Shown one piece after another: positions 1 through 19,238 of a DNA stretch of 24,119 nt (its first letter is position 1; the number at the start of each line of letters is the position of its first letter). The stretch lies in the NCBI GenBank assembly GCA_036782275.1, contig DAIPZI010000001.1, forward strand, positions 1-24,119. The letters run 5' to 3'. Under the pieces are notes generated by a model, which did no database searches, was not told where the DNA came from, and worked only from the letters and a program-made list of their open reading frames with translations. The translations under genes and the position numbers were made by a program. The DNA is from Crocinitomicaceae bacterium. GTDB lineage: Bacteria > Bacteroidota > Bacteroidia > Flavobacteriales_D > Crocinitomicaceae.

Positions 1-109
1 GGTGGGTCGACTAAAACTATTAAACTCTTATCAAACTAGAAAATGAAACTGCTTCTCCAAGCAGTTTTTATATCGCATAAGAAGTTGCCTGTGTCTCTCC
101 TTATTTCTA
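1..109 (-). ncRNA. Putative structured ncRNA, paralogue L (5' part only; 3' end runs off the left edge)
   Basis: 4-44 is identical to 476-516, 46-67 is identical to 517-538, and 68-109 is similar to 539-580. It keeps the hairpin AAACTGCTT-GGAG-AAGCAGTTT and the conserved upstream elements. There is no ORF >=60 aa. Confidence 0.62.
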
Positions 110-114
110 TTATA

Positions 115-158
115 AATGTAGAAAGTTAGTTCGGTTCTTTTATAATGAATGAATATTC
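115..158 (-). promoter_or_regulatory. Putative promoter/operator module of ncRNA copy L
   Basis: Minus strand reads GAATATTCAT-N28-TACATT. TACATTTA is one mismatch from the Bacteroidota -7 box TAnnTTTG. The layout is the same as at 585-628. Confidence 0.5.
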
Positions 159-395
159 GAGCAATTTTAACGAAAATAACAGCCTTTTGGTTTATTATTT
201 ATTTCCTATTGTTAGGCCTAAAAGGCTGATTAGATATAAATCTATTGGTTTTTTCTGTCCAATTATGATTCAAATAGATGTGTTACCGCTTTTCCTATAC
301 ATCTCTAGAATAAAAATTTAATGGAAACAAAATTTGTCCATGTTAAGATTTTAATGGCCTATTTGAGTTTGTCAATTAACTAAAAAAAAGGAAAT

Positions 396-415
396 AAAAA
401 AAGGTCTTTCGACCT
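396..415 (-). terminator. Intrinsic terminator of ncRNA copy R
   Basis: Minus strand reads AGGTC-GAAA-GACCT followed by a run of T. The plus strand has no T-tract after the hairpin, which fixes the orientation. Confidence 0.8.
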
Positions 416-575
416 GGGGTTGTGTTTTGGGTTTGATTAAGGAATACAGGAACCACTTATGCAATTGACCCGAGCGGGTCGACTAAAACTATTAAACTCT
501 TATCAAACTAGAAAATAAACTGCTTCTCCAAGCAGTTTGTTATTGCATAAGTAAGATTCCTGTGTCTCTCCTTAT
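396..575 (-). ncRNA. Putative ~180-nt structured ncRNA, paralogue R (complete)
   Basis: Closing stem: 568-573 with 439-444, 557-563 with 446-452, and 542-552 with 455-465. Hairpin A is 517-538 (9 bp, GGAG loop) and hairpin B is 467-480. A 36-nt unpaired segment spans 481-516. It has a 3' terminator and is duplicated at 4-109. Confidence 0.72.
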
Positions 576-584
576 TTCTAGTCT

Positions 585-628
585 AATGTATGATGTAAAT
601 TGGTTTTAAAAGGGATCGATGAATATTC
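585..628 (-). promoter_or_regulatory. Putative promoter/operator module of ncRNA copy R
   Basis: Minus strand reads GAATATTCAT-N28-TACATT (TACATTAG, one mismatch from TAnnTTTG). The spacing is identical to copy L although the spacer sequence has diverged. Confidence 0.5.
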
Positions 629-683
629 CCTAATTTAAATTGAAGATATCGGGGTTCTTGTTGATTATTTCTTTTTAAGAGAA

Positions 684-1133
684 TTAGTTATTAAAGGTAA
701 TTCTGCCACTGATCCAACTTGAATCTAGTTCGGTTTTGTGTTTTTTGTAAAAAGAAATGGCTGGCTCATTCCAATCGAGTACTTGCCAATCCAACCTTTT
801 TGCATTGCTACTTTCAGCTATTCTAATGATCTCTTGAAACAGCATTGATCCAACACCTAGTTTTCTACATTCTTCTTTTACAAAAAAATCTTCTAAATAA
901 AGACATTTACCTTTCCAAGTAGAGTAGGAGGTATAATACAAGGCAAAGCCAATAATATGATCTTCCTGAGATGCGACGATCGCACTACAAAGCTTGTCTT
1001 CAAATAAATGTTGTCTGAGTTGGGAAATTGTGTTGCTAACTTCTTGAGGTGCTTTTTCGTAAATAGCTAGTTCTTTAATCAATTGGAATATAGCGGTTTC
1101 ATCTCCGAATTGTGCTTTTCTTATCGAGATCAT
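684..1133 (-). CDS. GNAT family N-acetyltransferase, spermidine/spermine (diamine) N1-acetyltransferase-like
   Basis: 149 aa. It has GFALYYTSYSTWKGKCLYLEDFFV, the acetyl-CoA motif RKLGVG and the C-terminal WQVLDWNEPAISFY typical of SSAT-like GNATs. ATGA overlap with the sprA stop. Confidence 0.88.
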   Translation of the reverse strand: MISIRKAQFGDETAIFQLIKELAIYEKAPQEVSNTISQLRQHLFEDKLCSAIVASQEDHIIGFALYYTSYSTWKGKCLYLEDFFVKEECRKLGVGSMLFQEIIRIAESSNAKRLDWQVLDWNEPAISFYKKHKTELDSSWISGRITFNN

Positions 1134-4100
1134 TGTACACCCGCTAGATTAAACCTGATTTTGAATCCAGTATTAACATTACCAGTTGGGTAACTCGTTT
1201 GAACTTTTGGTGTATTCAGATTTTGGTCATAATAAAACATAAGTGTCAGATTGTTAGTCAGGTTATAATCTGCAGATATTTTTATTGACATTGTTTTTTG
1301 TCCTGCCGTAGCTTGATTGGTGTTTTCAACAATCTTTCGAATAACTGTGAGATTATCTCTAAATGAAAAATCAAACTTAATATTTACATCACTTGGCTTG
1401 ATGTTTTTGAAAGGAAGTTTTACATCCTTGATTCTGGCCGCAGTTCCAATAACGATTTCTTCTGATAATGACTCTGTAACTTGGTTGTTACTGAGCGCAA
1501 GAGTTGATTGCCTGTCTTTTTTATATTCGAAACGAGTTTGTAGGGTGTGTCCCAAAATTTTCCAGTTGGCATCAATACCGATTAATGGAGAAAAACGTTC
1601 GGAAAGCACGACGTTTTGAATTTGCATTTCTGGTATATAGTTGTTGTCTATATCTAGGTTATTTAAATTACCGTTTTGGTCTTGTGTTCCGTTTAAATTT
1701 GTTTGCATTCCATTTACAGAAACCGAAGAACTGTATCCGTGTCGAACAATAAATGATTTAAGGAATTTCTTTGTGAACTTATATTTTGTTAAGCCACTAT
1801 AATTGATCGACCAATTAGGCAGCGGCGTGTTTTGGAGAGGGTCGATGTTTTTACTGTTGATTCGGGAGTTGTTGTACGCGGTCATAAACGATCCAAGTAC
1901 GACATCCTGCTGTGACCCAGAATAACCCGAATAAAAGCCATTAGAGCTGATTAATGATGAATTAGAATTGTCTTGCCCGACTATTTGTGAAACTTGAGTA
2001 CGATTGTCGAGAAGGTTTTGAAACACCTCAGATTGATAATCGGCTCCTTCTTTTGTAAAAGCTGTACCCCATGTAATGGTTGAATACGTTAGTGTTGCGG
2101 TTTCAAATTGACTTTGTCCCTCAAATTGTGATGTGGCATCATTCCATCTATAAAATTCCCCACTATTCCGCGAATAATTTCGATTTAGATTCAGGTCAAT
2201 ATTTACATCTTTTAATGGTTCCAAAGTAGCTCTCATCGTAAGATTGTTAGAATGGGTTATTCCATATTGGGTATTCAAATTTTCATTTTGCACCAACCAG
2301 CTGTTTTGGGTGGCTAAATTAGATACGCTGTAATTATTTTTTCTGCCAAAGACATCATACCCTTGTTGCCCAAATATGAAACCAGACAGCTGAGTCGTTG
2401 AGGAGTTCATTCCTAAGAATCTCGTTTCTTCTCCATAGCCCGGTAATATTGTACCATCATTCAAGCTGTAGGTACCGGAAATGTTACGAACCGTCATGAT
2501 TAATCTTGCAAAAAATCCAGCAATTTTAGGAACTTTACGTTTCGCCCGTAATTCTTTTCGGGTTTTCTTTTTATACGTTCTGTTCTTTTTCTTGTAAGCT
2601 TTAAGCTGATCTCTATTCATGGAGTCTAGTGGCTTATCAGGTTCAAGGTCATCAACCTTTATCCATTCCCATTTTTCTTTGTCAGTATTCTCTCCAGCTT
2701 CTTCCTCACTCTCTCCATTAGATCGACTACCTGGACCATTTCTTGGGTTGATTCTTCCTCGTGAGCCTCTTCCATCAGCCAGCACTTTTTTGAAAAATGG
2801 GACTTTGTTGTAGAGGTTTACAAAATTGGCCTGAGCCGTAGTATTAATGCTTCTGTTGTTTTGTATGGTATTGCCAAATTCGCTCTGTCCAAGAGGTGCT
2901 CTTGCCCAATTGTAGCTCCCTGTATATTTTACGTTTGCGCTAATCCAATTGGTCAAAGGAAATTTGTCAAATGGGATTTTATAATTAATAGAATAATTGT
3001 GACCGTATTCCATGGTTTTTCCTAAAGTTGACATTTGAGATCGAATGGTGTCTAAGAATTCTCGATAACCGTCGGGGTTATTGATTCGATCTACACTATT
3101 ATTACCCTCTTCAAAAATGGACTTGTTAGAGGCAGAAAAGCTTGTTTTTAAATTCCTAGTAATATCGTATCCGATTTGATAATTTCTATTCCAGTCAAAT
3201 CGCTTTAAAAAGATGGGTTCAAATTCATAATCAGGGACAAGATTATTTCGGACCTGTCTCTCATTATAAATTCGAGAATAGTCATTTGTGAATGAGATGT
3301 TTTTTGGCATTAAGAACAGATTGAAGTCCTTGATGAGTTTTAAGTACTTCGATTTTTGGACAGGTTTCCATTTCTTAAATGGTTGGAACGGTTTTCCTTT
3401 GAACGTGTAATTATAATTTAACGCTCCTGTCCATGTTTTTGTAAGGTCTTTCTTCGTGTTGAAGTCTCTCTGAAGGTTTTCTGCATATGCATAACTCGCG
3501 GCCCAATTTGAGATTTTCCAAAAATGATTTTTTGAACCTGCTTTTGCTTCTTTACGAACATTTGCAAAATTGAAAGACTTTCTTTCATTAAAATCTTGAC
3601 CTAAGGCAGCTCTTTCTTTTCTTTTAGCGGGTTCGTAATCTGATAGCTTAATGTCTGGATTAAATGGGTCGTACTCTGGATTAATAATCCCGAGAGAATA
3701 ACCATAAAAGAAGGGTAGAGAAACCCGTGCTTGCTTTCCGAAGAATTGTCCAAGCTGTATGCTTGAATTGAAGTCAAAACCTATTTGCTCATTTCGTTGT
3801 CGGTCTTGAACACGGCTGTCTACGCTTCCCCAATTTATTCCTGAATAGTTTCCAGAGGCGTTGATATTCGCAAAGTCTGCGAGCTTTACTTGTACTTGAC
3901 CAACAGCTGCCGAACCTCCTTCACTTACGAAATCGGTCAATCTTAATTCATTAATCCAAGCGATGATGCATTCAGATTCTCCATCGTCAGGTTGCCAAAT
4001 ATTATTCGGGTCATTTTTTAATGGATTTCGAACACCAACCATTATGGTTTTTAGTCCTTGAAGATTTGGACTTCCTTTTACTTTAATTCGTCTATTGGCG

Positions 4101-7100
4101 TTTTTAGGGTCCGTTTTTGAATATTCAACAATGTATGAAATCCCATTAGCTCCCTCCTCGATATCCTGGTTCCTGTCTTTTTTCAATTGAATAAAATCAT
4201 CAAAAACAATTTCTATGTTATTATTTTCTGGCCAAATTTCCTCAGGAGTAGTGGATCCCCAGGGAGTGACATCTAGCGGAAGCTCATATTCGTAATAATT
4301 GTCTACAAAGTCGGTTCCTAATCGAATAAACATGGTCACATCTTTATTCTTAAGTGTATTTGGAATGACTTCTTCAGCGTGAGCAAACATTTTTAGTTTT
4401 TGATAGGTTCTCACATCAAACTGAACATTTCTATAGGCTGCTCTCGCATCTCCATCCTGTAGATTACAAATGTCCAAAACCAATGATTGCTCATTCATTT
4501 GTCTTTGGTATACTTGAGATGGATCAACCTCCCTTAGAATTCCTGGCGGAATTTCATACTTTACAGGGCTCCTTTGGTCATTCTCTTCGACATTGACAGC
4601 TCCAATATTAAAAGTGGTTAGGTTTGGGTCCTGTTGTATGCTCAGGCCGGGTTGACTTAAATCTTCATTAAATCTTCGCCATTCTCCTCGAATTAATTCA
4701 AGTCGAGCAAAACGCAATACCACCTCCTCGTCAAATTCTTTTAAAAACATTCGCATGAATCGAATAGATCTGAAATCTTGAATTCCATTCACTTTTTTCT
4801 CAAAGTCAGCAATCGGTACTTTGAATTGATACCAAGTTTCTGTTTTATTTCCGTTTTCGTAAATCTGCTTGTTAGTGATATAATTTTTACCTTCCTGAAG
4901 GTCCTCGGGCCTCATACTTACCTTATACTGAAAGTAGCTTTCGGTTTCGGATAGATTGTTATCTTGATTAATATCTTCGATATCAGGCATGTTCGTGCCT
5001 TGAGTGGGATATCCATTTGCATTTGCAGTATCAGACATTTCAGTGGTAGGAGAATTTCCTTCCATTCCGTTGAAGCGTTTGTATCTATTCAAAATGTCTG
5101 CTTCAACATTATCATAATTGTCATCCAAATAATAGTTATAATCATCATTGGAAGGGTCAGCAATCATTCTAGACTTTGTTGTTGCTGTAAGGTTAGGGTT
5201 GCTATTTACCCAATTCACATAATTTTCAAATGCGATTTTTTCCTCATCGTTTGTCCATCCATCTAAACCAACATCTTGGTTAAGCCTTGAAGCTGGGTCA
5301 TTATCAAAGGCGTTAACCACCACTTGTTGAGTGGATACTTTTGCCCACTCTGTAGTATCAATGTTGTCATTTAGAGATACCCCTTGTCCTGGCAGTCCAT
5401 TTTCAAAACTTTTCCTTGAATCAGGTAAAACATCTTCAGATATATTTCCTAAGTTGAAATAAAGGTCGCCACCATTATGAATGGCAAGGGTATCAACATT
5501 TTCTGCATCTTGATTGAATGGGTCCAAAACCCAAAACTGTATAAACTCAATGTTTGCTAATTCAAAATCATTGGTTGTAAGCCCACGCATAATTCCACCC
5601 CATCTATTTTCTGGATCGACAAAACGACCAACAGAGTCAATCGTATTTGTGGTGTCGTAATTGTACATTCCTCGTTCTTCCGGATAGAAAGCCAAATCCA
5701 ATACAGGAATGTTTTGAATGGATCCATATTGTAATTGTTGATTTGGAAAGATATCAACTTGATTTACCAATCGCATTCTGCTATCAGCAAGGATTTCACC
5801 TCCATTTTGTTTAATGTGGTCAGGCGTTAATGAATTACTTTGATAAAAAACGGGATCAATAACGTACCAGGATGTTTTGGCTCTTTTAAATCCTGTAGAA
5901 AGATCTTTTATTGAGGCTTCGGGAAATAAAGAGGGCTGGCCCTGAGGAATGGATGCTAAGCGCCACGCTGTTACAGTTCTAAGGTCTATTGCGCTCTGGG
6001 CAGCTTCAAAATCGTCAATATAGGACGTTCCTTCTTTATTGATGGCCCTAGGTTGTCCAGGGATGAGGTGAGCTACTTCCCCTGTAAAAGAGATTGTTGA
6101 TTTTTGTTTGGTCGAAATGACGGGAAGCAAATCAACAAGTTTTGTTAGAAAAGGAACTTCTGCTCTAAAAGCAAGGTCTGCACCGATTACATTATTCTTG
6201 AATGGCTCGCTTCCAAAGTCTACTTTTTGGGTTACCGGTCGTTCCATCATTCTGATCCATGTTGCACCGATTTTGAATTTATCACTAAAACGGTATTGAT
6301 AACGTCCACCAACCATAGACCGAGCTTGGAATCCAAATACGGAGTTGCTCTCAATAGAAATCTTGATTGGGGTATTGGATTCAAGAATTCCGGTATTCAA
6401 TATTTTTACACGTCCAAACGCATAATCAACGGTATAGTCAACTCCTTCTATCAATCGAATTCCTCCCGCAGTAACAGAGACTGAGCCTTCCGGGACAGAC
6501 ATGACATTTAACGGAATATCTGAAGTGATAGAAGATTGGTATTCTCCTTTAAATAAAAATCTATTTTTACTCGGAATTTGTTGGGCAGCTGTTTTTGTAG
6601 AGTCGTATAATTCATGAAATGCGATTTTATCTACAGTAATCTGTGGGATTCCCGCATCAGTCATTTTATCTGCAAGTGTTTTCCCGAAAGGTTCGACAGT
6701 TGAGAAGAATATACGTCCATTTTTTTTATTAATGGTTCCACCATTATCAATCTTGTTTCCTACCTGATTAAATGGCGCAAAATCAAAAACTCCATCCGAG
6801 AACGGTTGATTGTTTTGATTGATTTTATCCATGTCAATTAAGGTGACAATCTGCTTATTATCTACACCGTCAAGGGGCATAATTGGAAGCTCTACAGATG
6901 TTTCTGGATTGTTATATAATACATCGATCTTGAATCCCAATTGATCTACTTGATACGCACCAATGGAATACACATTTTTCATCATAAGGTCCCAAACTTT
7001 GTTGTTTGGATTTGTGATGGTTGGCTTTAATAATTTGAGAATTAAAGCATCTTGACCAGTTGATCCATCGGTTGAAAATTCACCAATCTGATATGTTTCT

Positions 7101-8485
7101 CCTCGATATGTATATTCGTATGAAACACCAAGTACTTCATCATTATTAAGTGGGGTATTTAGTGATATGTAACCGAGTAGAGCATTGTAGGTATAATCGC
7201 TTTGCTCTAATCGTCGTGCATTTTCTAATTTTTCGTATTCCACGGCTTGGTTAAAGGGGCCAGGAGAAGTAAATTGAGAGCTTAATACACCTACGGAATT
7301 TGCGAATCCTCTGACTAAAGGTTGATTAGAGGCCCAGGCGTAAAGTCCGTTAGATTCGTTTCTTGGTATGATATCCGTAGAATAATTTCCTGGATCTCCT
7401 TGGCAATTGGATTGTTGAGACTCACCAAGATCTGAAAATGCAATAATATTTCTCGTGTTTTCAATGCTATTGTTTCTATTGGTCACCCATACCTCAATTC
7501 TTGTAATATACATGGTTGAACTTACAACCGGAAGGGTGGACATGGCCTCATCATAATGTTGCTGATGATATAGATTTAAGAAGTAATGCCGATTTGCTTC
7601 ATAGTTGTCAGCGGTAAGCTCAAATTCTTGAACCTGTGATTTTCCACTTACGTTAATTTCATTCCTTTTTCCTTTAGAAGAAGCGGCGATTAGATCAACC
7701 GTAGCTCTTCCAAATTTAAGTTGTGTTTTGGCTCCAAATAAAGTTTGAGATCCTTGAATCAAAGACGTTGGAAGCTCTAAGGCGACATTACCTAAAGCAA
7801 TTTTTTGAAGAATCTGATCTTCATCCCCCGTATGTTCCAATTTGGAAATGTTTTCAAAATCAAATGAGGCTTGCGTATTGTATTTTGCTCCAATTTTTAG
7901 TTTTGTTCCAATCTGTCCCACAATATCCATGTTTATGTTCTGCTGGAAATCAAAACGAGTGACCCTTCTTTGTCGAAGAGGAAGTAGCGGATTGTCATAT
8001 CGAGAAGAGTTGGCTCCTAGAGAAAGTTCTATATTTCCCTGAGGTTTAATTGTTATTTTATCTGAACCGAAAAAATTCTCAAATGCTTTACTTCCTATTG
8101 TAATGGGCAATTCAAATGCTCTATTTTCCTCAGTCTCTTCTTCGATGAGTTCAACCCAGTCCTGTGACATCGATTTCTCTCTTTTGTATTCGAGATATTC
8201 TTCCAGTGTCATGGTAGATGGGTTTCTGTAATACAGCCCGCTACCTAATGATTCAGAAAAAATATAGGTTCCTGTCAAAGGGTCATAGGTGATGTTTTGA
8301 TTTAATCCTGATGGATCACCAAGATCAAACCTTTGATTGTCAATTTGAAACGGATTAACAGGATTCACAATTGGAAAAGGCAATTCAAATGGGTTGTTCT
8401 GCGAAAAGGCAGAAAAACCAATAAAAAGGAATAAAAAAATTAAACCCTTATTTAATTCAAAATGATATGTTCGCCTATTGTTCAA
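1130..8485 (-). CDS. sprA: T9SS outer-membrane translocon SprA (Sov)
   Basis: 2451 aa with an N-terminal signal peptide and a beta-barrel-type C-terminus (GFKIRFNL). It has SprA-typical segments (IKPQGNIELSLG, FELTADNYEANRHYF, DDFEAAQS, QDFRSIRFMRMFL) and the canonical position downstream of maeB-ruvA. The annotated start codon is TTG. Confidence 0.96.
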   Translation of the reverse strand: MNNRRTYHFELNKGLIFLFLFIGFSAFSQNNPFELPFPIVNPVNPFQIDNQRFDLGDPSGLNQNITYDPLTGTYIFSESLGSGLYYRNPSTMTLEEYLEYKREKSMSQDWVELIEEETEENRAFELPITIGSKAFENFFGSDKITIKPQGNIELSLGANSSRYDNPLLPLRQRRVTRFDFQQNINMDIVGQIGTKLKIGAKYNTQASFDFENISKLEHTGDEDQILQKIALGNVALELPTSLIQGSQTLFGAKTQLKFGRATVDLIAASSKGKRNEINVSGKSQVQEFELTADNYEANRHYFLNLYHQQHYDEAMSTLPVVSSTMYITRIEVWVTNRNNSIENTRNIIAFSDLGESQQSNCQGDPGNYSTDIIPRNESNGLYAWASNQPLVRGFANSVGVLSSQFTSPGPFNQAVEYEKLENARRLEQSDYTYNALLGYISLNTPLNNDEVLGVSYEYTYRGETYQIGEFSTDGSTGQDALILKLLKPTITNPNNKVWDLMMKNVYSIGAYQVDQLGFKIDVLYNNPETSVELPIMPLDGVDNKQIVTLIDMDKINQNNQPFSDGVFDFAPFNQVGNKIDNGGTINKKNGRIFFSTVEPFGKTLADKMTDAGIPQITVDKIAFHELYDSTKTAAQQIPSKNRFLFKGEYQSSITSDIPLNVMSVPEGSVSVTAGGIRLIEGVDYTVDYAFGRVKILNTGILESNTPIKISIESNSVFGFQARSMVGGRYQYRFSDKFKIGATWIRMMERPVTQKVDFGSEPFKNNVIGADLAFRAEVPFLTKLVDLLPVISTKQKSTISFTGEVAHLIPGQPRAINKEGTSYIDDFEAAQSAIDLRTVTAWRLASIPQGQPSLFPEASIKDLSTGFKRAKTSWYVIDPVFYQSNSLTPDHIKQNGGEILADSRMRLVNQVDIFPNQQLQYGSIQNIPVLDLAFYPEERGMYNYDTTNTIDSVGRFVDPENRWGGIMRGLTTNDFELANIEFIQFWVLDPFNQDAENVDTLAIHNGGDLYFNLGNISEDVLPDSRKSFENGLPGQGVSLNDNIDTTEWAKVSTQQVVVNAFDNDPASRLNQDVGLDGWTNDEEKIAFENYVNWVNSNPNLTATTKSRMIADPSNDDYNYYLDDNYDNVEADILNRYKRFNGMEGNSPTTEMSDTANANGYPTQGTNMPDIEDINQDNNLSETESYFQYKVSMRPEDLQEGKNYITNKQIYENGNKTETWYQFKVPIADFEKKVNGIQDFRSIRFMRMFLKEFDEEVVLRFARLELIRGEWRRFNEDLSQPGLSIQQDPNLTTFNIGAVNVEENDQRSPVKYEIPPGILREVDPSQVYQRQMNEQSLVLDICNLQDGDARAAYRNVQFDVRTYQKLKMFAHAEEVIPNTLKNKDVTMFIRLGTDFVDNYYEYELPLDVTPWGSTTPEEIWPENNNIEIVFDDFIQLKKDRNQDIEEGANGISYIVEYSKTDPKNANRRIKVKGSPNLQGLKTIMVGVRNPLKNDPNNIWQPDDGESECIIAWINELRLTDFVSEGGSAAVGQVQVKLADFANINASGNYSGINWGSVDSRVQDRQRNEQIGFDFNSSIQLGQFFGKQARVSLPFFYGYSLGIINPEYDPFNPDIKLSDYEPAKRKERAALGQDFNERKSFNFANVRKEAKAGSKNHFWKISNWAASYAYAENLQRDFNTKKDLTKTWTGALNYNYTFKGKPFQPFKKWKPVQKSKYLKLIKDFNLFLMPKNISFTNDYSRIYNERQVRNNLVPDYEFEPIFLKRFDWNRNYQIGYDITRNLKTSFSASNKSIFEEGNNSVDRINNPDGYREFLDTIRSQMSTLGKTMEYGHNYSINYKIPFDKFPLTNWISANVKYTGSYNWARAPLGQSEFGNTIQNNRSINTTAQANFVNLYNKVPFFKKVLADGRGSRGRINPRNGPGSRSNGESEEEAGENTDKEKWEWIKVDDLEPDKPLDSMNRDQLKAYKKKNRTYKKKTRKELRAKRKVPKIAGFFARLIMTVRNISGTYSLNDGTILPGYGEETRFLGMNSSTTQLSGFIFGQQGYDVFGRKNNYSVSNLATQNSWLVQNENLNTQYGITHSNNLTMRATLEPLKDVNIDLNLNRNYSRNSGEFYRWNDATSQFEGQSQFETATLTYSTITWGTAFTKEGADYQSEVFQNLLDNRTQVSQIVGQDNSNSSLISSNGFYSGYSGSQQDVVLGSFMTAYNNSRINSKNIDPLQNTPLPNWSINYSGLTKYKFTKKFLKSFIVRHGYSSSVSVNGMQTNLNGTQDQNGNLNNLDIDNNYIPEMQIQNVVLSERFSPLIGIDANWKILGHTLQTRFEYKKDRQSTLALSNNQVTESLSEEIVIGTAARIKDVKLPFKNIKPSDVNIKFDFSFRDNLTVIRKIVENTNQATAGQKTMSIKISADYNLTNNLTLMFYYDQNLNTPKVQTSYPTGNVNTGFKIRFNLAGVQ

Positions 8486-18438: not shown

Positions 18439-18469
18439 AGAATTGTTTTTTTAAATTTTAGATGCCGAT

Positions 18470-18501
18470 TTTGGTTAAACCTATAATACGACCTAGATTT
18501 G
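18470..18501 (+). promoter_or_regulatory. Canonical Bacteroidota promoter for the regulator-TBDR-HMA operon
   Basis: TTTG (18470-18473), N20, TAGATTTG (18494-18501) is a perfect TTTG-N19-21-TAnnTTTG match. Confidence 0.75.
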
Positions 18502-18514
18502 TTAATTTTATACA

Positions 18515-18522
18515 CAAATATA
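18515..18522 (-). promoter_or_regulatory. -7 box for the protease gene
   Basis: Minus strand TATATTTG matches TAnnTTTG, about 76 nt upstream of the protease ATG. The -33 candidate is imperfect (TTTC at 19 nt). Confidence 0.5.
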
Positions 18523-18545
18523 AGGCTTGTAATTCACAAACGAAA

Positions 18546-19238
18546 ATGAAGAATATTTGTTTAATCGAAGATGAGGAAAACATTGTTGAACTCGTTAAGT
18601 TAAATCTTGAAATAGAGGGGTTTAAGGTGAAGTCATTTCAAAATGGAATGAGAGCGAAAGAGGCGATTTTTGAAATTATACAGTTTGACTTAATTATTCT
18701 TGATGTTATGTTGCCTGAGTATAGTGGCTTTGACCTTTGTAAGGATATTCGCGAATTGAGTGACGTACCTGTTCTCTTTTTGTCCGCTAAAGGAATAGCT
18801 ACTGATCGGATTCACGGGCTTAAGTTGGGGGCAAATGATTATTTGGCCAAACCTTTTGATTTGGAAGAGTTGATTTTGAGAATTCACAATTTGGTTTCAA
18901 GTAAAATAGATGTGAAGATCAATAGTCTGCAAATCGGCGAAGTGAAGGTGAATTTCTCTTCCTATGAAGCTAAAGATTCTCAGTCGAATACTATTCATGT
19001 TTTTTCGAAAAGAGAAATAGAATTGCTAGAGCTTTTTAATGAATATGAGGGGAAAGTCATATCGAGAGACTTGATTTTGGATAAGCTTTGGGGAAAAGAC
19101 AATTTCCCAACATCCCGGACAATCGACAATTATATCCTTACTTTTAGGAAAATTTTTGAATTAAATGCCAGGGATCCAGAATTCTTTCATTCAGTGAGAG
19201 GCGTTGGATACAGGTTTACTTTGCATTCACCAAAATAA
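18546..19238 (+). CDS. OmpR/PhoB-family response regulator
   Basis: Receiver motifs are LIEDEE, IILDVMLP (phospho-Asp), FLSAK and DYLAKPF. The winged-helix domain has SRDLILDKLWG...RTIDNYI...HSVRGVGYRF. The start is set at the ATG at 18546 because the longer ORF would start upstream of its own promoter. Confidence 0.93.
   Translation: MKNICLIEDEENIVELVKLNLEIEGFKVKSFQNGMRAKEAIFEIIQFDLIILDVMLPEYSGFDLCKDIRELSDVPVLFLSAKGIATDRIHGLKLGANDYLAKPFDLEELILRIHNLVSSKIDVKINSLQIGEVKVNFSSYEAKDSQSNTIHVFSKREIELLELFNEYEGKVISRDLILDKLWGKDNFPTSRTIDNYILTFRKIFELNARDPEFFHSVRGVGYRFTLHSPK

Follow-up and report, generated by a model that had tools for sequence, protein, structure and literature searches.

A minus-strand element at one end of a Crocinitomicaceae contig belongs to a previously undescribed family of small RNAs (sRNAs) of freshwater and marine Crocinitomicaceae (Flavobacteriales). 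Judged from its promoter sequences and from the genes that accompany it, the sRNA is most likely the direct output of a two-component system made up of a TPR-histidine kinase and a LytTR regulator, and a loop within it is very probably its functional surface. We think it somewhat likely that this minus-strand RNA is LytTR-driven and acts in trans, the loop serving as an interaction surface that pairs with several mRNAs. An apparently LytTR-driven sRNA family whose genes occur in tandem and whose internal loop is invariant over roughly 36 nt is new to Bacteroidota.

A predicted transcript with its own promoter and terminator

The stretch of DNA analysed here (the window; 24,119 nt) is a whole contig (C1) of a metagenome-assembled genome that is 56% complete. 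Its first 55 bases are the reverse complement of the last 55 of another contig, C118, and this exact overlap joins the two. The joined sequence holds three tandem copies (A, B and C) of one sRNA element. Coordinates below are those of the window unless another locus is named.

Copy C
620-668, minus strand: three direct-repeat boxes (ATATTCA at 620-626, ATCTTCA at 641-647, ATAATCA at 662-668)
583-590, minus strand: Bacteroidota-type -7 box TACATTAG (consensus TAnnTTTG/A)
578 to about 395, minus strand: the sRNA, roughly 185 nt
566-578, minus strand: conserved 5′ end GAAAUAAGGAGAG, near-invariant in 110 homologues and 4-5 nt past the -7 box
542-574, minus strand: 5′ strands of closing helices P1-P3 in the minimum-free-energy (MFE) fold; in helix 3 both sides change in 12 of 12 pairs
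517-538, minus strand: hairpin P5 (AAACUGCUU GGAG AAGCAGUUU), helix 5, with 94.9% of cells paired
481-516, minus strand: central loop, RNA UUUAUUUUCUAGUUUGAUAAGAGUUUAAUAGUUUUAGUC
467-480, minus strand: hairpin P6 (GACCC GCUC GGGUC), its sequence varying by copy and species with pairing retained
438-466, minus strand: 3′ strands of P1-P3, from the MFE fold and covariation
416-437, minus strand: C/A-rich 3′ tail CAAACCCAAAACACAACCCC, between closing stem and terminator
395-415, minus strand: intrinsic terminator, AGGUC GAAA GACCU (hairpin 402-415) followed by U7

Copy B
113-156, minus strand: promoter, with -7 box TACATTTA at 113-120 and proximal ATATTCA box at 150-156
1-107, minus strand: the sRNA (covariance-model match of 94 bits), cut by the contig end, its 3′ part lying on contig C118
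95-107, 46-67 and 9-45, minus strand: 5′ end, P5 and loop, the last retaining UUUCAUUUUC

Copy A
Contig C118, further in (L003:277-404): a more divergent copy

Four features place the sRNA on the minus strand, as the first-pass annotation had it: the -7 box, the conserved 5′ end, the terminator with its U7 tract and the excess of G-U over A-C cells in the helices (299 versus 82), which fits that strand. Of 110 upstream regions, 79 have a -7 box of the TAnnTTTG/A form beginning at -12/-13, and from its position relative to the conserved 5′ end we infer a transcription start at 578. The minus-strand transcript is predicted to begin at GAAAUAAGG and to end at the intrinsic terminator; a strong G+C-rich terminator hairpin with a U-tract follows the full-length RNA in every species. 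No conserved open reading frame was found on either strand across the homologues. The element thus has the make-up of an independent non-coding unit with a promoter and an intrinsic terminator of its own, both ends being predicted.

The 3′ tail carries one to three CUACUAC(U)A motifs in most other species, whereas in the clade of the window CAAACCCAAAACACAACCCC or ACACAAACAAUCAAU stands in their place; it could be a second conserved single-stranded module. In copy C the tail could pair with the loop through AUCAAAC/GUUUGAU, but we rejected this pairing because the tail differs in most species and is unpaired in the MFE fold.

Shine-Dalgarno-like motifs are generally avoided in Bacteroidota. 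Two such GGAGAG motifs, near-invariant across genera, occur on the minus strand of the element, one in the 5′ end (AAGGAGAG, within 566-578) and one in the P5 loop (UUGGAGAG, 525-530). No start codon consistently follows them.

A covarying scaffold

A covariance model based on 33 units yielded an alignment of 114 matches, 87 of them distinct. Compensatory change is extensive: in the 87-sequence alignment, 36 of the 43 proposed pairs vary on both sides. Paired cells make up 86.8% of the total, against 41-48% (about 44%) in controls with the partners displaced by 1-3 columns, and the observed covariation values were reached in none of 500 shuffles. The layout that folding and covariation support runs from the long closing helices P1-P3 through the GGAG-loop hairpin P5, a C-poor loop of about 36 nt and hairpin P6 to the C/A-rich tail and the terminator. 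In the family P5 reads CUGCUU GGAG AGGCAG, and its stem-loop CUGCUUGGAGAGGCAG is near-invariant across genera. Most species form a further helix, P4 (GUUGAC/GUCGAC), which surrounds P5 and the loop; P4 is weak or absent in the copies of the window, so that there the loop lies in a junction.

An invariant loop on the scaffold

The two copies in the window drew attention to the loop because it had been described as identical between them and more conserved than the stem that closes it. Both observations are borne out: 4-44 and 476-516 agree at 41 of 41 positions, whereas 82-115 and 553-586, in the closing stem, are 88% identical. Over their whole length the loops of copies B and C are the same except for one deleted C.

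The contrast holds well beyond the window. Across the 87 distinct sequences of the genus, mean column identity is 94.7% in the loop, 80.4% in paired positions and 75.1% in other unpaired positions, and columns at least 98% identical make up 13 of 34 in the loop but 8 of 79 among paired positions. Comparison with homologues from other genomes thus finds the loop conserved throughout the genus and its core, UUUUCUAGUUUGAU, retained in other genera, where the loop reads ...CUAGUUUGAUUAAAGAGUAUAACAGUUCUU and UUUCAUUUUCUAGUUUGAUUAAAGAGUAUAACAGUUCUU. The universal parts are P5 with its GGAG loop, then UUU(C)AUUUUCUAGUUUGAU, and AGAGU-UAA-AGUU. One difference is systematic, the window's genus having GAUAAGAGUUUAAUAGUUUU and the others GAUUAAAGAGUAUAACAGUUCUU.

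The loop had also been called unpaired. It is relatively open, since its unpaired probability in 31 full-length homologues averages 0.51 (range 0.28-0.66) and that of the RNA overall 0.39, but it is not cleanly single-stranded, since by folding only about half of it is open. Weak A-U and G-U pairing inside the loop lies beyond the reach of covariation because the sequence is invariant.

Another early emphasis, on four repeats of AGUUU, fared less well. The plus-strand AAACT units are indeed at 486, 494, 505 and 517, but the fourth (517-521) belongs to the 3′ strand of P5, which leaves three in the loop proper. Some 5-mer occurs four times in 6.6% of composition-preserving shuffles of 481-521, so the repetition is little out of the ordinary, and it is not a conserved trait, as loops in other genera mostly have one or two units. 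The proposal of a multivalent protein-binding site made of these repeats is weakened accordingly.

What remains is the view of the loop as the functional surface, which gains from these comparisons: it is the best-conserved exposed element of a covarying scaffold. Strong selection on its sequence, together with its presentation by that scaffold, makes it very likely an interaction surface. An invariant stretch of about 36 nt is more than one short seed needs.

Distribution and novelty

Among 36 genomes from the window's genus, BLAST finds the sRNA in 33. A search with a 22-nt core pattern gave 100 exact matches, almost all in metagenome-assembled genomes of Crocinitomicaceae or other Flavobacteriales from lakes, rivers and the ocean. 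The covariance model detects the sRNA in 9 of the 29 genera of the family and, with model filters off, divergent copies directly after the regulator gene described below in two further genera. The sRNA is thus present in at least 11 genera and is widespread in a family that is abundant in fresh and marine waters.

No Rfam 15 family matches the window at gathering score, and within positions 1-800, at E values up to 10, only chance-level hits of 15-20 bits appear, against thresholds of 39-113. No tRNA or tmRNA genes were found. Full-text literature searches yielded no published account of this sRNA or of LytTR-driven sRNAs in Bacteroidota. Regulatory RNAs under two-component control are well known in Firmicutes, and post-transcriptional control in Bacteroidota beyond gut Bacteroides is almost unexplored. 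To our knowledge, the phylum lacks Hfq, ProQ and CsrA and mostly makes no use of Shine-Dalgarno sequences.

Probable link to a LytTR two-component system

The promoters of 110 distinct homologues contain two or three ATATTCA boxes each (one mismatch allowed), at -49, -70 and -91, and the spacing is 21 nt in 119 neighbouring pairs of boxes from these 110 promoters. The promoters in the window itself have one perfect proximal box and degenerate distal ones. The 21-nt geometry of the family matches the rule given for LytTR regulators, a 9-bp repeat with a 12-bp spacer (PMC2766830).

Gene neighbourhood points in the same direction. In several other genera a gene with Response_reg and LytTR domains lies immediately upstream of the sRNA on the same strand, preceded by a gene with TPR and His_kinase domains (LytS type). 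The LytTR gene is not adjacent to the sRNA in the window's genus, where each of five genomes searched has one clear orthologue elsewhere; it was not found in the window's own genome, which is 56% complete. Within the family the regulator is well conserved, at 60-100% identity. All 9 of 9 sRNA-positive genera have it, and the sRNA is missing from 12 of 12 regulator-negative genera. It is from the box geometry, the gene neighbourhood and this co-occurrence that we read the sRNA as the probable output of the two-component system. The family would thereby be tied to a TPR-histidine kinase and LytTR pathway and would open three points to experiment, namely the signal, the promoter motif and the effector RNA.

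The same 21-nt-spaced ATATTCA boxes also precede one of two sigma-70 paralogues, which are about 69% identical to each other. They lie about 110-140 nt upstream of this 289-aa gene at L201 and L202 (genomes G030 and G007), and the observation extends to loci L272, L274, L275, L284 and L278. Such boxes occur in the window's genus, in both genomes of another genus, each with three boxes, and in one genome apiece from two further genera; in five genomes of regulator-negative genera no such boxes were seen before the sigma-70 gene. The sigma gene was not found in the window's own, 56% complete genome. The paralogue may join the sRNA as the second member of its regulon.

Search for targets of the loop

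The first-pass annotation had suggested that the loop is a seed that occludes start codons, and named the start of an OmpR-type regulator in the window as a partner. We computed duplex energies for a 40-nt loop sequence against 1081 start regions, with gene starts taken from crude ORF calls in an incomplete genome. Mean energy was -11.16 kcal/mol at start regions and -11.11 kcal/mol at mid-gene controls. Compared with 36 dinucleotide shuffles, strong matches were not enriched in number, and only the mean was slightly lower. A start-codon-occluding seed thus finds no backing from either control.

The regulator start ranks 13th of 1081 in this genome, but the match is gone in 25 orthologues of the genus, where the energy of the core is -4 to -8 as against -12.8 in the window's own genome, so we set this target aside. 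The regulator ORF is listed at 18462-19238 on the plus strand; its receiver domain begins at residue 32, which makes the ATG at 18546 the likelier start. The gene lies upstream of genes for a TonB-dependent receptor and a heavy-metal-associated domain protein.

Two cautions that came with the original suggestion were sound. The CAU that would complete an anti-AUG is absent from copy C, as had been remarked of that copy, and also from the copies of its closest tandem-copy relatives. The local match had been called weak evidence, and AAAAAUGAA proves to be the commonest start context in the genome, so that the anti-start-codon match carries little information. It should not be passed on as a target prediction.

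Other searches gave a similar picture. An exact k-mer complement scan of the window's own genome gave, beyond the sRNA genes themselves, a longest match of 14 nt. When the complement of the universal core was sought in five genomes at up to three mismatches, exact matches were confined to the sRNA genes; of 26 other sites examined, only 4 are at the start of an ORF of at least 140 aa, and these are unrelated. For the 3′ half of the loop, no site outside the sRNA genes matches the complement at 20 or more of 23 positions in ten complete or near-complete genomes. The start region of the neighbouring cyclase gene gave no complementarity signal. The two top candidates from the own genome were rejected on distribution: of 30 genomes, 4 have the SiaC-like gene and none has the gene for a 149-aa unknown protein. 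Starts of the kinase and LytTR regulator genes were likewise dropped, as apparent complementarity was limited to 2 of 8 regulator starts, which we treated as chance. Neither enriched nor conserved target sites emerged, in searches whose power is limited by the incomplete genome and the crude gene starts.

Possible modes of action

In the mechanism that we favour, a LytTR-type response regulator would bind two or three 21-nt-spaced ATATTCA boxes and thereby switch on transcription of the sRNA. The loop would then, most probably, form short and imperfect duplexes with several mRNAs in their A/C-rich 5′ regions. An RRM-type RNA-binding protein might assist this pairing, as with GibS/FopS and RbpB. 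A single-stranded seed that pairs with start regions, combined with binding by an RRM protein, has a precedent in Bacteroidota (PMC11697453), and RRM proteins are encoded in all five genomes that we checked. We prefer overlapping short seeds for multiple mRNAs to a protein platform, possibly with both combined.

It is less likely, though not far-fetched, that the main role of the sRNA is to bind or sequester a protein, such as one of the RRM type, with the loop, the GGAG hairpin and the tail as contact sites. The invariance of some 36 nt together with that of the hairpin loop goes beyond what a short seed needs, no conserved complementary target was found, RRM proteins are encoded by all five genomes checked, and in Bacteroides multicopy sRNAs have a conserved, single-stranded 41-nt motif to which RbpB binds. 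Against this, the AGUUU repetition on which the multivalent idea was built is not conserved outside the genus, classical sponge models lack their CsrA or Hfq, and base pairing and protein binding can coexist. CsrA (PF02599) is absent from five genomes that are 95-99% complete, in a search with a positive control, and Hfq was not found in genomes of this group. The RNA also differs from a Csr/Rsm-type sponge, which would have multiple GGA motifs in hairpin loops: its GGAG motifs number just two, and of these the P5 loop holds one and the 5′ end the other.

A broader variant, to which we attach still less credence, has the loop, the GGAG hairpin and the Shine-Dalgarno-like 5′ end acting as a decoy that titrates a global component of gene expression. 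The component could be an RRM chaperone, the initiation site of the ribosome, or RNA polymerase with the co-regulated sigma-70 paralogue. If this were true, the LytTR signal would reset translation or transcription genome-wide.

That the sRNA is a 6S-like RNA, which binds RNA polymerase as an open-promoter mimic and is co-regulated with the sigma-70 paralogue, seems very improbable. It resembles 6S RNA (RF00013, RF01685) in size, and copies without P4, such as those in the window, would form a closing stem, a large asymmetric central bubble and a terminal hairpin. Some genera have the 21-nt-spaced boxes before the sigma-70 paralogue, and five complete genomes of the family contain no match to 6S or 6S-Flavo, although the 6S-Flavo model is silent in control genomes too. 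However, the sRNA itself matches no Rfam 6S model, its terminal hairpin has only 6-9 bp, and most species form P4 and with it a three-way junction, which covariation supports. Tandem, inducible multicopy genes with an activator-dependent promoter and a terminator would be unusual for 6S RNA, and the sRNA was not found in many genera of the family.

We give equally little weight to an internal terminator or attenuator made of the 5′ part of the loop and P5, which would yield a short RNA of about 65 nt, with the long form as read-through. P5 and the U-rich run that follows it do receive a weak terminator-like score, on the minus strand of both copies, and no parts of the RNA are more widely conserved than P5 and UUUCAUUUUCU. 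Yet covariation in P1-P3 and P4 needs the 3′ half, so that the long form is under selection, conservation runs about 25 nt past any U-tract, and every species has its strong terminator after the full-length RNA. Hardly credible is a functional plus strand with a small ORF from the ATG at window position 43 and an A-rich start region: copy B reads agaaaATGAAA and then a 28-codon frame, but we rejected it because the ATG is ATA in copy C and missing in several homologues, and because the G-U excess, the promoter boxes and the terminators all belong to the minus strand.

Comparison with known regulatory RNAs

RNAIII (agr, Staphylococcus aureus), FasX (fasBCAX, Streptococcus pyogenes) and VR-RNA (VirR/VirS, Clostridium perfringens) are outputs of LytTR-type regulators, RNAIII under AgrA and FasX under FasA. 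The Crocinitomicaceae sRNA shares with them a structured RNA gene beside a histidine kinase/LytTR pair, direct repeats of 21-bp periodicity in the promoter, a terminator of its own and conserved exposed loops. It has no sequence or structural homology with them and belongs to Bacteroidota, a phylum without Hfq. The kinase here contains TPRs and is of the LytS type, nothing points to a peptide quorum-sensing locus, the repeat is ATATTCA and up to three RNA copies stand in tandem; in the window's genus the sRNA gene lies apart from the two-component genes, and binding by the regulator is putative. The kinase, LytTR regulator and sRNA could be a Gram-negative counterpart of the AgrA-RNAIII design that does not serve quorum sensing.

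GcvB and Spot 42 of Proteobacteria have long conserved, C-poor single-stranded regions that pair through overlapping short stretches with A/C-rich leaders of many mRNAs. Pairing of this kind would explain invariance over tens of nucleotides. Both depend on Hfq, however, which is absent here, and multi-target behaviour of the Crocinitomicaceae sRNA is hypothetical.

Within the phylum, the closest likeness is to GibS/FopS of Bacteroides thetaiotaomicron, which are also multicopy paralogous sRNAs with a long conserved single-stranded region (PMC11697453). FopS uses this region to pair with translation initiation regions, and RbpB, an RRM protein, binds it (PMC11697453). The architectures differ: FopS is about 65-70 nt long, with a 5′ single-stranded R1 seed followed directly by the terminator hairpin, whereas the Crocinitomicaceae sRNA is about 185-300 nt long and its conserved region is internal to a multi-helix scaffold of about 140 nt. 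Nor do FopS promoters depend on LytTR boxes; they are canonical. With these differences, with no Rfam match and with no susC-type or other target found, we do not place the Crocinitomicaceae sRNA in the FopS/GibS family.

Genomic context and divergence of the copies

The minus strand at 684-8485 holds a 2451-aa gene, which the first-pass annotation named sprA, and a GNAT acetyltransferase gene whose start overlaps the stop of the 2451-aa gene. The sRNA array is downstream of both. Other species of the genus have a different gene upstream of the sRNA, for example one for a YHYH protein with a T9SS sorting domain, so the sprA neighbourhood is not a conserved feature of the sRNA. A PF04199 cyclase-family gene is convergent to the sRNA in the window's genus and in the loci of several other genera.

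Copy A has no GAAAUAAGGAGAG 5′ end, and its P5 and P6 are altered in sequence with pairing retained. Third copies in the related genomes G033 and G036 have a changed 5′ half of the loop (UGUAUCAUCUAAUGAU) and retain GAUAAGAGUUUAAUAGUUUU. The divergence of the third copies suggests that the sRNA paralogues are sub-functionalised.
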